Shown here in pieces: positions 15,843-54,720 of a stretch of DNA of 64,000 nucleotides. The DNA is taken from the NCBI GenBank assembly GCA_964016885.1, contig OZ024742.1:202492001-202556000 (forward strand), given 5' to 3'. The notes below the pieces were generated by a model, which was not told the DNA's origin, did not search any database, and saw only the letters and a program-made list of their open reading frames with translations. Positions within the stretch are counted from its first letter, which is position 1; every line of letters starts with the position of its first letter. Both the position numbers and the translations under genes were made by a program. The DNA is from Eledone cirrhosa. Its lineage: Eukaryota.

Positions 15843-16250
15843 TGTAAAAGTTCTATTTAAATTGTTGTGATACAACAAGCAAATATTTTTATAACTGATA
15901 TAAAGCACTCAACAAATAATTGGAGTAAAAATACGATATTAACAAATGGAAACTATATTTATAAAACCATATTTATTTCATTATACATATTTCAGGGACA
16001 CCAAGTTAAATTATGATGTGCTTTCATCAGATAAAATATAACATAGACCAGTTTTATAAATAAATATTGACATACCCTTAAAAGTAATGATTGCATTCTT
16101 TAAGGGTATGTCAATATTTATTTATAAAACTGCTCTATATTATATTTTATCTGATGAAAGCACACCATAATTTAACTTGGTGTCCATGAAACATGTATAA
16201 TGAAATAAATATGGTTTTATAAATATAATTTCCATTTGTTAATATCGTAT
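15843..16250. mobile_element. Fold-back element, family H2 (PLE pLTR-like arms with hammerhead motif + tail)
   Basis: Arms 15931-16082 and 16099-16250, one-sided tail 15843-15930, (TA)n on both flanks. Confidence 0.85.
16143..16207 (+). ncRNA. Minimal type I hammerhead ribozyme motif (mirror copy on the minus strand at ~15974-16038)
   Basis: TATTTTAT-CTGATGA-stem II (ACACCA..TGGTGT)-GAAA-CATGTA-TA-ATGAAATA. Stem I has 8 bp including one G-U. This copy has a stem III mismatch that the mirror copy lacks. Confidence 0.7.
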
Positions 16251-17257
16251 ATATATATATATATATATATATATATATATATAAAACTTAGGAAATTAAC
16301 AGAGAAAAAACAGCGAACGAAAACAAGGCAAATCGAAAATATATATATTTAAAAAAAATAAAAATACAAACGAAATTCACAGAAATCCAAGGTTTTCAGC
16401 CGTCCAGATGGATTTCTGGCAGTTTTGGTCCATATCGATGATACTATTCATCCACCTGCGCTCACAGTGTCTGACACAGGTCAAAGTGCCGTCCCTGATG
16501 CGCGAGACAAAACAATAATCTATACCAATTAAGGTATAACGTGGAGACATAGAATCTTATGTGACGTATAAATGTAGGTATCTTCCTTTTATAGCAACGA
16601 ATGTCTCGTGAAACTGAAACAAATCTAAAGACAAAAAAAGAAAAAGGAGAAAAAGGAAGAAAAACGACAAGAAAGAGAAAGTAAGATTATAATGAAGTAT
16701 TCCACTATCACTTTTAATAAGGTGAGAGAAGATCAATGCAGACTAAAAGGACTCGGCACATTAAGAATTCAAAACAAATGAAATACTCTTCGAAAGTTGA
16801 AGTTCTTGTTATTGAGGACGGTAAGGGTAGTAGAGCATAAATATTTAACGTGAAGACAAATCAAAGTTAACAACTTAAATCCATTTAATTTCTACGTTCA
16901 TTTTTATATAAGCGATAACAATACATGCATATATAAACAATAAGTTAATCGGGAACTTAATTAGCAATTATTTAAACAAAATATAATACATATAACATCC
17001 ACATATCATCAGGAATCACAAAAAGTGATAAAGTTTAACCAAATACAAATCTTAAGAACACACACAGTATCAAATGTTCGACATTGGCAAGCACATGGCG
17101 AAGAATGTACGCGAAATAGGTTTATGTGCAAAGTTGTAAAAGGTTGTGTTTTTAGTATGAGGTAAAAAGTTGTACATCATTAGTATCAATATTACTATTA
17201 TTATTTCCTATTACTGTTAGAAGAATATTCATTGATGGCTAAATAATATACACAGAG

Positions 17258-17398
17258 AGAAGTGTAAAAAGCTGGTAGTGAAGCGAAATTAGTTCAGAGG
17301 CCGCGATAATAATTAGTTTTTGTGTTAATGGATAATAATTATTATTATCGTGGCCTATGAACTAATTTCGCTTCGCTTCCAGCTTTGTTTACACTTCT
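17258..17398. repeat. Imperfect ~140-bp hairpin (MITE-like or fold-back relic)
   Basis: GAAGTGTAAA..AGCTGG..GAAGCGAAATTAGTTCA..GGCC versus GGCC..TGAACTAATTTCGCTTC..CCAGCT..TTTACACTTC. Confidence 0.7.
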
Positions 17399-17914
17399 TT
17401 GATTGGTCGGTAGAGGTCATGTGAATGTAAAAAATTGATTTTGCGCCAAATGTGTCGGCTGACTGAGAAATACGTCTTTCACAACAAATATGTGTGTGTG
17501 TGTGTAGTAGTAGTAAAGAGGTTCGTTGTTGTGATAATGGTCAGCAGGGATGTGTGTGCGAACCGCAGCCTGTTGACAGTTCAAATGCCTATTAAGACAA
17601 GTATGTGTGTGTGTGTGTGTGTGTGTGTGTGTGTGTGTGTGTGTGTGTAGCAGAGTAATTCGTGGTAGAGGGATGGTCAGTAGGAATGTGTCTGTAAGTG
17701 TGTGGTGGATATTTTAACATGTTAAAAGATATTTTTCAGCTCTTGTCTTATGCGGAGAAGTGTGTGTGTGTGTGTGTGTGTGTGTGTGTGTGTGTAAAAT
17801 GGTGTACATTATTCGATATTTTCAGTAAAATCGATTCTCTCAATAGAACATCAAAAACCTTAATAATAAAAGGTGTGAAATGATATATAGTATTGGCATA
17901 ATACCAAGGTGTAG

Positions 17915-18175
17915 GTGAGTGTGTCCAGATTGTACGTACTGCAAGGGGGGGGTCCATTAGGCCTTGCCGTATTGGAATACCTGTGCACAAATATGTATCT
18001 GGAGTGTGTCCAGAAATTGTATACCTGTGCACAAATTGTACACATGTATCTGGAGTGTGTCCAGAAATTGTATACCTGTGCACAAATATGTATCTGGAGT
18101 GTGTCCAGATTGTACGTACTGCAAGGGGAATTCATTAGGCCTTGCCGTATTGGAATACCTGTGCACAAATATGTA
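17915..18175. repeat. Nested minisatellite (units containing TGTATCTGGAGTGTGTCCAGA and TACCTGTGCACAAAT)
   Basis: Direct repeats read from the sequence. Confidence 0.85.
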
Positions 18176-51508: not shown

Positions 51509-53562
51509 TTATTTAAAGTAATCCAACTTATCTTACTAACGGGATAAACAAATATATAACGGACACTGTCCCGCAATCCTCCCTTTATTAAATTATAGTA
51601 AGGAAGTTATATTATAGTAAGGAAGTTATATTATAGATAGGAAGTTAGTCTTTGTGTGTTGCATGTTGAGTATAACGTAAATTGTGCTGTACACGTCGAC
51701 ATTTTACGCGGAAATAAATCTCTCTTTAATTTGGATTCAGGGCTCTGCTGTTTCTCGTGTTGAAGAGGGCAAATTATCGAACACTCGGTCACCCTCCGAT
51801 AGGTTTATGGTCGAACCTGTTGCACTACCGACTTCCGGCGTGCTTGACTCCCAGACCACCTCCCTACTCAACACTATCGGGGTGGAGTTAGCCACCCGCA
51901 GGAGTGAGTCCCTGCGAGTTGGAATGACTATCCCAATGAGTTTTCCCCTGCCATCCTCCAAGAAAGCGTTTTCTCCATTTTGTCCTCTTTCATAGTTTCT
52001 CTTTCTCCGACACTCTCTTTTCCGTTCCCTTCCTCTCTCCCACCCTCACCCTCTCCCACCCCTTCTCTTCTCTCTCTTTCTCTCTCCTTATTTTTTGTCT
52101 CAAAGAATTTGATTGCGTTTAATCCTAGAGTGAGATGGGCTCTGCCAGGTTTTAAAATACTTAAGAGATGCCATGCTGTATGTCACTACGGTGACCCTAC
52201 AATTCCACAAGGATTTAAAGGCCCATTGCTTTGCATTGCTAAACAAGTGGACTAGAGCACCTCACACTCCTTTTCCCCATCTTACTGTTACTCCAGCAAG
52301 TTGCTGCAATTATTTTCAGTTAAAACCTGGGGTTGGTGCACTTATATAATATATTTTAGAAATATATTACTAGTGATTTAATTTTTCTTTTTACTTATAT
52401 TTTAGAGTGGGAAGGGTAGTGTCTAATAAGGTTTACATGATCCCCCAATACTAGTCAAAGGTAGAAAAGGAAAGGGGTGTCCGTAAAATGGAAACTTAGT
52501 CCCTCGTCCGAATATTTGTTCCACAATTAACTCCGGCGAAGATGCACAAAGGCGAGGTGGTAGTTTTAAACCGGGCGACAAATTAAATCTATCACTAAAA
52601 CAGATCACAGGGCGATTTACAACAGAGTGCATCCCACTAAATTCACTCAAAATGTCAGTGGTGATGTTAAGCATTTTGTTTGGCATTTCTAATGAAAGTC
52701 ACTTCATAAAATTTTAGAGTTAATAAATTTCTCGGTATTAAGCTGATCTTTGGAACATAACTTAACAAAATTACTTACAGATGCATTTTGGACATTTTTC
52801 GTTTTTAATTGAGTAATTCACCGAAAGTCATAACTTGACCTGTCTTTGTCTCTACCTGTTTTGTTCCGTCCCAATATGCAGTGGAATAAATAGTATCAAT
52901 ATTAATCCCGCCGAGGTTAACTTTGCCTTTCATCCTTTCGCGTGATTTCCAAAGGCTGAATGAGATCTGACTGTCCATTTTCCAGTTGTCGCTTAGCCTT
53001 TGTCAAGGCAGAATTCTAGGAGAAGGAAAACTCTGATATAACACCTGCAACCTTGATGGTATCCAATGATGTTGACTTGTTCTTCTTTTTGGTAAATATC
53101 ATCTTGGTTAAGAGAGTGGGACTGGCTTTGTGCAGTGCCTTTGCTCACTATAAAAGCTTCACGGCACAGGCATTGCTTTATATCTGGAGATCTCTCTGCA
53201 CTTGTCCTCACATGGTACCATGGGCCCAGCACTATGTGTCAATAATTGTCACAAGTGTAGTGTTTGTACCAGAGTTTTCAAGTCGCTGGCTGGACTAAAA
53301 AGTCACACTCATGCAGCGCTTCGGTAGGGGTTCTCCTACATGGATATAAAGTAGTGGCCGTACTCGAAAACGAGTTGGCAGCCACCATATATATATATAT
53401 ATATATATATATATATATATATATATATATATATATATATATATATATATATTATATATATATGTATATATATATAAGCAAAAAGGATATTCAATTTGTT
53501 GGTAATTCAACAAATATAAATGATTCAGAGCACTCGACAGTTTTCTGGTGTATAATATTCAA

Positions 53563-53792
53563 TAATATTAAATAAATGGAAACTATATCCCGCCGAGGTT
53601 GACTTTGCCTTTCATCCTTACGGGGTCGATAAAATAAAGTACCAGTAATGCACTGGGTATTTGCTGGCCTTGTGCCTAAAGTAGAAACAAGTATATTTAT
53701 AAAACCATATTTATTCTATTATATATATTTCAAGGGTACCAAAACTTTGGTGCACTTTCATCAGATAAAATACAAAGTTTGTTTTATAAATG
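53563..53792 (-). mobile_element. Family H2 arm with hammerhead (53712-53772), interrupted by a 5'-truncated SINE (53589-53691, plus strand)
   Basis: The minus strand reads TATTTTAT-CTGATGA-AAG..CTT-GAAA-TATATA-TA-ATAGAATA. The SINE splits GGAAACTATAT|TTATAAAACC with an apparent TATAT duplication. Confidence 0.8.
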
Positions 53793-53953
53793 TTGGCATA
53801 ACCAAGAAAAGATACCTTAACTGTTCAAGTTTTTCTTGGATAGTGAAGGAAAAGAGAAGAAAAGTCAGGTATTTCAAATTATTGAGATGAGTATGCAAAT
53901 GAGGTTGAGGTATAGGGCTGAAAAAACGTTATTTTAGACGCTATGCAGAATTT

Positions 53954-54720
53954 AAATAATTAGGATATAGGTATGTATGAGTAGGAAGAAGAAAAAAAGA
54001 TAGAAGAGCTTGTATTTACGTTAATTTAAAAGGAATTAACAATTTGCGAGAATGGTGGAATATGATTCCAGAATTTATATATAACTTCGCTAAATTAACA
54101 ATATTCTGAAAACATTTTCAACGTTGGAACAAAATATTTGAATCTACAAATTGAACTACAACTTGAACTAGATGTTTTTTATGTAAAATGCAAAATCAAC
54201 TTCCTTCGTAACTCATATTAGAAATGTAAACAACTAATAATTGTAAATTATTTCTATTTCTATAATACTTATACATGCACAATTATTAATCTATATAGAT
54301 ATGTATATACTTACAACCAATTGTAATGTAATAAGATAAAATCTACTTACAACCATAATTCTTCATATAATCTAATTAATTATATATACAATATTATAAC
54401 TCATAATATAGCTAAATAAATTTAAATTCTGGAATCATATTCCACCATTCCCGCAAGTTGTTAATTCCTTTAAAATTAACGTAAATACAAGCTCTTCTTT
54501 CTTGTTTTCTTCTTCCTACTCATACATACATATATCCTAATTATTTGATGTTATTACAAGATCCGTCATGTCGTGGGTGTATTCTAGAGTTAAGGCAGCT
54601 GTTGAATGTACCTTGGCACATTTAAACACGCATATCTGATGAGATGTCGAGTACGAGTTGGGCCCCGGTCATTGATTGTTCTCTGAGCTGATCCGTATTG
54701 AAACGATTGTAATAAATAAA
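53954..54720 (+). mobile_element. Fold-back element (arms 53954-54077 / 54423-54546) with a 3' extension carrying a hammerhead-like motif and AATAAA
   Basis: Inverted arms read by eye. CTGATGA (54636)...GAAACGATTGTA (54700-54711), then AATAAA and (TA)n. Confidence 0.7.

Follow-up and report, generated by a model that had tools for sequence, protein, structure and literature searches.

Fold-back insertions of Penelope-like elements and of a tandem ribozyme repeat in a 64-kb stretch of the Eledone cirrhosa genome

Introduction

Eledone cirrhosa is an animal with a 3.0 Gb, microsatellite-rich genome, from which we analysed one stretch of 64,000 nucleotides (contig OZ024742.1 of assembly GCA_964016885.1, positions 202,492,001 to 202,556,000 of the forward strand), referred to below as the window. 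Self-comparison of the window reveals about 12 fold-back structures whose arms read outward and are 89-99% complementary, with an extension on one side and mostly within (TA)n. These fold-backs are genuine insertions of several families of Penelope-like elements (PLEs) and of one protein-free tandem ribozyme repeat. An initial annotation, made from the window sequence alone, had arranged them as one continuous series of hammerhead-bearing retroelements. Their body plan of inverted arms and a one-sided tail is largely already known for PLEs, yet the structures are not one class and fall into at least seven families. We concentrate on three of these (A, B and C), whose arm ends bear on how PLEs insert.

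Fold-back Insertions in the Window

The plan that the initial annotation had recognised, outward inverted arms and a one-sided tail, is seen at 15843-16250, 25418-25880, 28562-29185, 33758-35672, 35683-37070, 37143-44322 and 63246-63486, and in the four window copies of the small repeat H1 (15649, 20170, 23280 and 26478), which is our family B. The (TA)n flanks described for these structures are present in most of them; the element at 29659 has none, and 63246-63486 is set in (CA)n that is itself surrounded by (TA)n. The hammerhead is not the universal feature it had been taken for, as H1, 35683 and 63250 are without a whole ribozyme.

Family A is represented by a mini-hairpin at 25418..25880 (minus strand; tail 25418-25497, arms 25498-25691 and 25693-25880, arm start at TC|ACT) with hammerheads at 25604-25555 (minus) and 25780-25829 (plus), and by an element of autonomous type at 45236..48958 (minus), which consists of a 5'-truncated open reading frame (ORF; 48958-46967, 95% to that of locus L078), a 3' untranslated region and a terminal tail-less arm with a damaged hammerhead (45237-45415). 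The motif named earlier at 45290 is hammerhead-derived as claimed, but it is damaged and belongs to this PLE 3' end (ORF 46967-48958), which had been missed. Related to A are a mini-hairpin at 15843..16250 (minus; tail 15843-15930, arms 15931-16082 and 16099-16250), with an intact hammerhead at 16030-15982 (minus) and a damaged copy at 16152, and an ORF-less fold-back at 53477..54720 (minus; tail from 53477, hammerhead 53764-53720, junction at about 54095). The latter had been delimited as 53954-54720; its start is really at 53477, it contains an insert resembling a short interspersed element (SINE) at 53587-53698, and its right end (54547-54720, with the motif at 54636) is a piece of another family.

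The family B mini-hairpins, all on the plus strand, lie at 15649..15822 (short left arm, 80-nt tail on the right), 20170..20369, 23280..23479 (tailed arm beginning G-AGTCC, with the 3' half of a U3-A8 hammerhead) and 26478..26667; a diverged relative of the family B end with its tail is found at 29440..29610 (plus). Family C occupies 28562..29185 (plus) as two opposed arms of a 430-bp unit, with a tail at about 29125-29185 and a hammerhead at 28875-28905. A second C copy at 41570..41889 (minus), nested in the element at 37143-44322, runs in the order tail, spacer, ribozyme start, which is a tandem junction.

By motif, the elements at 29659, 37143 and 45236 are Hydra-type PLEs. The first (29659..33716, plus) has CxCx5C at 32050, a broken reverse transcriptase-endonuclease (RT-EN) frame at 30559-32461 and a hammerhead-like motif with a CCGAUGA core at 33395. 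Its inverted arms (29659-30564 and 31582-32488) are as reported, but (TA)n flank, tail and ribozyme are all missing from the left arm. A copy of its EN region at 27812-28432, 96-99% identical to 29676-30309, faces it across 1.2 kb and has possibly arisen by local inversion-duplication. The second (37143..44322, minus) has DKT at 40917, CxCx5C at 39209, a broken ORF at 38788-41244, arms at 37149-38332 and 43017-44198, a tail to 44322, nested repeats and a CCGAUGA motif at 37244. Two further structures are PLE 3' parts. That at 33758..35672 (minus), which we take from its motif to be Neptune-type, has a 396-aa frame with GIY-YIG (34400-35587), arms at 33814-33999 and 35488-35673, a tail at 33758-33813 and a hammerhead at 34019-33985. 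That at 35683..37070 (plus), by its motif presumably of the canonical EN+ type, has a GIY-YIG fragment (36097-36372), arms at 35682-36105 and 36611-37034 and a 36-nt tail, and a strict type I descriptor finds no hammerhead in it; a lone copy of this 36-nt tail lies between TA runs at 22899-22937. A mini-hairpin of a canonical EN+ PLE occupies 63246..63486 (plus; arms 63246-63337 and 63347-63438, tail to 63486, in (CA)n); longer copies carry a U3-A8 hammerhead directly upstream, which is absent here, the element being cut just after the ribozyme. The small hairpin at 49234..49342 belongs to another hammerhead-bearing PLE-end family with relatives in L088 and L136.

Hammerhead Ribozymes

The strict type I descriptor yields six hits in the window, all inside fold-backs, where 200 dinucleotide-shuffled versions of the elements give a mean of 0.115 and a maximum of 2, so the enrichment on which the earlier proposal depended is present. 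Of the nine hammerheads it had named, five pass the descriptor and four are degenerate or variant. Those at 25772, 28870, 33980 and 53712 pass directly and that at 16143 only through its mirror copy (16030-15982, minus strand); the core is CCGAUGA in those at 33388 and 37202, 45290 has a broken stem II base and 54636 a 3-bp stem I. H1 carries only the 3' half of a hammerhead. The 150 Rfam matches listed, of 168, do not include a hammerhead, and folding the window hammerheads as single strands gives stabilities no greater than those of shuffled sequences (z -1.6 to 0.75).

A CCGA(A/U)GA core occurs in 12 of 19 rows of hammerhead-like motifs ending GAAACAATTGT among the loci examined, with a stem II of 11-97 nt (window positions 33395 and 37244; L039, L044, L047, L049, L093, L134, L163, L175, L221 and L234). 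This core is a recurring U4C variant.

Families A and B

Both A and B have a single ORF with RT plus GIY-YIG at its C terminus, in frames of 778 and 786 aa (L078 and L125) that contain YRDD and YVG/YIG motifs as well as RWR and SDKT (RWK-like and DKT motifs). A CxCx5C linker and CxxC and CxH around the EN are present and CCHH is absent, a combination described in the accessible part of PMC8557442, and both families insert into (TA)n and carry a hammerhead in the pseudo-long terminal repeat (pLTR). The A unit of 3,855 bp exceeds the Hydra size of "generally under 3 kb", which that paper gives as a general trait and not as a strict criterion. Pfam returned no match for the Hydra-type frames, including that of the window, and only a sub-threshold GIY-YIG for 34400-35587. 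Judged by these features, A and B appear to be the ends of Hydra-clade PLEs.

A family A search found 29 distinct loci among the best 40 of 726 candidates, all consisting of a tail and a hairpin in (TA)n with centres that vary within ~10 nt. Best-40 lists for the A and B queries lean toward the centre of the query, hence all counts given below come from pattern-ordered samples. The 26-mer at the A arm start has 416 exact matches in the genome, many of which form pairs in opposed orientation at distances of 1-6 kb. One outer arm is tail-less and the other has the 80-nt tail in all 20 of the 20 spaced pairs examined, and 16 of the 20 contain the ORF found in the window at 46967-48958. In tandem A copies the tail continues into the ORF, which gives the 3,855-bp unit, and partial tandem PLE copies occur at L070, L075, L077, L120 and L125.

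Arm ends of family A were counted at 65 loci from the first 100 matches of the 26-mer (3 hairpin loci fell outside), a sample conditional on that 26-mer. Among the 51 two-armed loci, one arm ends at each of the two sites (site 1/site 2) in 38 and both end at site 1 in none; 3 are internal pieces of tandems, and in the other 10 one end falls elsewhere or past the examined stretch. The 5' ends of the arms form a continuum from 75 to 3809, in which 17 of 102 arm starts fall within 13 nt at TC|ACT (1.3 per nt versus 0.135 just upstream). Short arms tend to be partnered by other short arms (Fisher p 4e-6). In 14 distinct arm rows that reach the A of TC|ACT in centres, the preceding base is G in 7, the genomic C in 6 and T in 1; the other arm can explain 2-3 of the 7 Gs.

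Family B is far larger, with 53,132 exact genome matches of its 23-mer. A second Hydra PLE ends in this arm and tail, and in L125 the tail runs into the 786-aa frame. Genome-wide there are 10,440 mini-hairpin centres and 6,872 read-through arms, from which it follows that about three in four B arms stop near TT(T/C)|AGTCC. The base before AGTCC in the centres is G in 1,696 cases and A in 355; read-through arms have G in only 7. The stop site resembles an initiator (Inr), and the extra G, absent from long copies, is likely the signature of a copied cap.

Of the first 50 B centres listed, 40 were examined individually, taken in genome order. All 40 minis have the tail on one side only, and 12 of the 13 arms stopping at +1 carry the extra G, 6 of them unambiguously. 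The tailed arm is the longer in 14 and the shorter in 16 (p 0.86), so that neither arm is more complete, and the two arms of an insertion nearly always have the same subfamily variants. These 40 minis have 27 different centres. In a tree of tailed arms, 46 from minis and 13 from read-through copies are intermixed (12 changes versus 11.3 when shuffled), and 7 minis match the tailed arm of the ORF-bearing L125 exactly; small clusters of minis only also occur. The A and B hairpins are built anew at each insertion and are not propagated as units: centres differ from copy to copy and minis are intermixed with long copies, so the idea that the hairpins spread as fold-back units finds no support in these families. 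In the comparison of shared with unique centres that had been suggested, the A and B centres differ, as expected if made at insertion, and neither a shared junction nor a separate mini lineage emerged. The 27 centres in 40 and the intermixed tree also rule against the A/B minis as a hairpin class of their own.

In short-read contigs, summed depth rises 10-20-fold at the B start position (a measure of depth and not of copy number), and (TA)n loose ends are found at both sites. Run X5, whose label names another organism, includes a contig with a fold-back in the start region of family B (L125:3059-3088).

Arms Ending at the Predicted Ribozyme Cut

Long B copies contain a hammerhead with the core UUGANAA (U3-A8), in which, across 25 distinct copies, N7 is any of the four bases and C3 occurs in 3. 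Its predicted fold is a three-way junction with a stem III of 5-6 bp, and the predicted cut is GUC|GGGGUC. The putative B start lies inside stem II, so the minis carry only the 3' half of the ribozyme.

Hairpins centred near this predicted cut occur at 709 loci. All of the first 40 are tailed on one side and 21 are micro-hairpins with 17-bp arms and a tail; the 80 arms of these 40 loci begin precisely at the cut in 28 cases, one base ahead of it in 14 (8 of which come from perfect CCCC/GGGG joins) and one base past it in 8, and no arm begins two bases ahead, starts beyond -3 not being resolved in this sample. Genome-wide, 189 arms stop at the cut with an untemplated A/T; the position two bases upstream has 4 such arms and that two bases downstream has 25. 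In 18 of the first 50 cut-centred loci the arms are joined through the stem III palindrome. A second class of arms stops exactly at the predicted cut of the U3-A8 hammerhead.

Insertions that mix one cut-site arm with one start-site arm number 14, though start-site arms are ~100 times commoner. This rarity implies that the two arms share one RNA or that one was copied from the other, and the symmetry of the arms, with G on both, favours one shared RNA over copying of arm from arm.

Family C

The C ribozyme 27-mer matches the genome 11,072 times, with frequent spacings of 420-430 bp. No frame in the unit exceeds 69 aa; the unit carries a type I hammerhead with U-U at the base of stem II and occurs in up to five tandem units, and its monomer circle has a predicted energy of -135.8 kcal/mol with 67% of bases paired (z -7.0 versus 60 shuffles). 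A short, ORF-less tandem unit with a type I hammerhead and a highly self-paired monomer circle has the traits of a non-LTR retrozyme (LTR, long terminal repeat). The 65 C loci examined have 96 arms. Of these, 74 terminate at either of the two sites that flank a 56-nt tail, and 66 of the 74 pass there into (TA)n. Of the 31 two-armed loci, 15 are site 1/site 2, 15 have one end elsewhere, and one (L216) was scored site 1/site 1 by wrong merging, its true ends being 252/308. The 5' ends of the arms are spread over the unit and 50 of the 96 arms are longer than one unit, which only implies a multimeric or circular template. PLE ORF pieces lie near 8 C loci, none continuing the C unit.

For the ORF-less hairpins two origins had been offered, extreme truncation of PLEs or a non-autonomous ribozyme class, and both hold, for different families. 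A and B are PLE ends turned into hairpins, but they are not random extreme truncations, their arms stopping at what appear to be fixed RNA ends. The non-autonomous, retrozyme-type reading holds for family C (28562-29185), which is inserted with a PLE signature. We infer that C is a non-LTR retrozyme and that a PLE would mobilise its RNA, in circular or multimeric form, in trans.

Mechanism of Insertion and Alternative Explanations

The insertions described above have fixed 3' ends, one arm per site and variable centres, and A and B are identified with the ends of Hydra-type PLEs. Their 5' ends pile up at two exact positions, one of which shows an extra G, and the tandem ORF-less unit C has the same end signature. 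These features are probably explained, for the large and the small fold-backs alike, by a PLE-type insertion with twin priming in which the arms end at two fixed sites bounding the tail. The PLE protein would nick both strands of (TA)n, one RNA would be reverse-transcribed twice, once from each site, and the two complementary DNA (cDNA) ends would then be joined head to head via microhomology or untemplated bases. Given a pLTR-ORF-pLTR RNA as template, a start at the 3' site pair would lead to long, randomly truncated arms, and a start at the 5' site pair would run off to the capped start and give minis of 200-460 bp, the G being a copied cap. A hammerhead-released fragment would allow run-off to the cut, giving micro-hairpins of ~115 bp, and a circular template, as supposed for family C, would offer no fixed 5' end. 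According to the accessible part of PMC11167929, an Anolis PLE protein, a predicted dimer, nicks and extends both strands in vitro from two start sites bounding the tail.

Several observations weigh against this account. The cap, the start site and the cleavage are read from DNA only, the use of a single RNA and a PLE driver of C are inferred, and the accessible part of PMC11167929 reports that cleavage is unnecessary in vitro and that no reads end at the cut. In the unbiased sample of 40, 6 of the 12 G cases coincide with a G of the other arm; B arm starts scatter over ~10 nt, some upstream of the proposed +1; the tree contains only 13 long tailed B arms; and a few insertions pair arms of different subfamily type (L014, L182). 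Two A insertions join a run-off arm to a long arm, and the cut-site test on an A-like group (92 loci with AT-rich overlaps) gave no clean pile-up; that on C (11 matches) was negative. Some long copies reach upstream of the start site (L070, L077, L125), and such internal pLTRs imply that longer or read-through RNAs are used too. For C, no PLE sharing its tail, no likeness to 11 other family ends and no non-C relative were found among the examined loci.

Self-priming, in which only one strand is target-primed and the first-strand cDNA folds back to prime the second arm on itself (compare the accessible part of PMC3846280), would account for palindromic junctions and short templated inserts in the centres, for subfamily variants common to the arms of one insertion and for the rarity of cap/cut mixtures. 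We nevertheless regard it as distinctly unlikely, since it predicts a more complete tailed arm, where 14 versus 16 was observed, fits poorly with the common centres that have 0-1 nt between perfect arms or an extra G on both arms, and leaves the exact stop of the second arm at site 1 unexplained. The A/B minis might instead be a self-propagating, SINE-like class, transcribed from an internal promoter on the tailed arm and mobilised in trans. Minis do exceed long B arms ~3:1, the tree contains its small mini-only clusters, and the Drosophila Penelope promoter is internal according to the accessible part of PMC2377424, but this too is unlikely: the minis are not clustered overall, 7 are identical to the tailed arm of L125, and the micro-hairpins require the whole ribozyme that minis are without. 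Such a class would in any case alter the source of the RNA and not the mechanism of insertion.

The pile-ups could also reflect RT pausing at RNA structure, microhomology hot spots or later deletion of centres in place of RNA ends, and the B start does lie within a stem-loop, the cut site adjoins a G run, and the joins through the stem III palindrome (18 of 50) are of the kind expected. We consider this very unlikely, because none of these processes can make a non-genomic G or untemplated A/T at one exact bond, and both arms stop together. Long near-perfect palindromes in microsatellites further invite the suspicion of an assembly artefact, or of foldback DNA transposons such as miniature inverted-repeat transposable elements (MITEs), either of which is hardly credible here. 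The palindromes exist as thousands of dispersed copies with common fixed ends and independently diverged arms, and short-read contigs recover the same (TA)n ends and the fold-back joint, which together exclude an assembly artefact; for the window's own centre at 25692, no short-read contig bridges it. A MITE or foldback transposon, for which symmetric terminal inverted repeats, a fixed interior and a DDE partner would be expected, is ruled against by the one-sided tail (40 of 40), the variable centre and the RT partner, including continuity with RT-GIY-YIG ORFs.

Beyond the twin-priming account, we tentatively suggest a wider reading that may well prove mistaken, in which twin priming on one RNA is obligatory, the hairpins preserve cap and cut, B cleavage acts as a brake and a retrozyme uses the same machinery. 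If so, cleavage would strip the 3' start sites from the coding RNA, the B ribozyme being whole only in the 3' pLTR, and the protein would be spent on sterile hairpins by the tens of thousands, so that transposition would carry its own brake. The hairpins would then be a nucleotide-resolution fossil record of RNA ends, and an animal retrozyme would have been caught using PLE machinery.

Comparison With Known Systems

The comparisons in this section concern the accessible sections of the papers cited. EN+ PLE insertions share with ours the partial tandems, the inverted adjacent copy, the tail at one end, the palindromic junctions, an Inr-like TCACT in the pLTR and, for Hydra, (TA)n targets (PMC8557442, PMC3846280). 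They differ in their tails of 30-40 nt, against 80 nt here, and in that here ORF-less double-arm minis dominate family B and the fold points lie at two exact RNA positions. The Anolis Poseidon PAc protein likewise nicks and extends both strands, with two RT start sites bounding the tail and AT-rich targets, but has no reads at the cut, where insertions start at the predicted cut here; in the sections available, inverted arms and a cap signature are not derived (PMC11167929).

Non-LTR retrozymes resemble C in the short ORF-less tandem unit, the type I hammerhead, the palindromic stem III and the self-paired circle, and PLEs have been proposed as their drivers from co-occurrence and pLTR homology (PMC7229834, 10.64898/2026.07.22.740005); here it is the insertion ends themselves that display the PLE signature of two sites, inversion and (TA)n. 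PLE minimal hammerheads share the U3-A8 core variant and a bulge before stem II with the B ribozyme, which differs in its 5-6-bp stem III and in the putative start inside stem II; in Schistosoma PLEs, U3-A8 hammerheads and motif pairs 100-700 bp apart on opposite strands have been described (PMC4209133). In L1 twin priming the second strand is also primed on the same RNA, and an untemplated 5' G has been taken as a copied cap for L1 and SVA (PMC4859970). There the second priming site is variable and the arms are without end duplication, whereas here both sites are fixed and the arms copy the same stretch.

Neither signatures of a cap or a cut site at PLE junctions nor retrozymes with ends of the PLE type were found described in the literature searched, to which Repbase, subscription papers, the Terminon paper and supplements did not belong. 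The data address three mechanistic questions, namely the formation of inverted copies, hammerhead cutting in vivo and the mobilisation of animal retrozymes (PMC3846280, PMC11167929, PMC7229834, 10.64898/2026.07.22.740005). By a method that needs a genome alone, the counts would give exact positions for the start of the RNA, for the cut of the ribozyme and for the two sites where RT begins. A 200-bp repeat that could readily be classed as a SINE or MITE, its motif having more than 50,000 exact matches, is a by-product of PLE insertion.

Other Repeats in the Window

A SINE-like repeat family is found at 5224-5416, 14372-14893, 33129-33320, 51318-51520, 53587-53698 and 62105-62163, two of the insertions lying within PLE arms. 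Two copies of a long interspersed element, 91% identical, lie at 7344-9356 and 10615-14102 with RVT_1, zf-RVT and a C-terminal HNRPD motif, and are presumably R4/Dong-like. Inverted repeats of 190 bp (59790-59979 and 60718-60906; 97%) surround a 205-aa frame without TA flanks and may be a DNA element. A 140-bp palindrome at 17258-17398 is likewise without TA flanks. Short direct and inverted repeats cluster at 26849-27763, and tandem duplications of a 630-bp TA-rich block and a minisatellite occupy 55546-57800 and 57843-58414.

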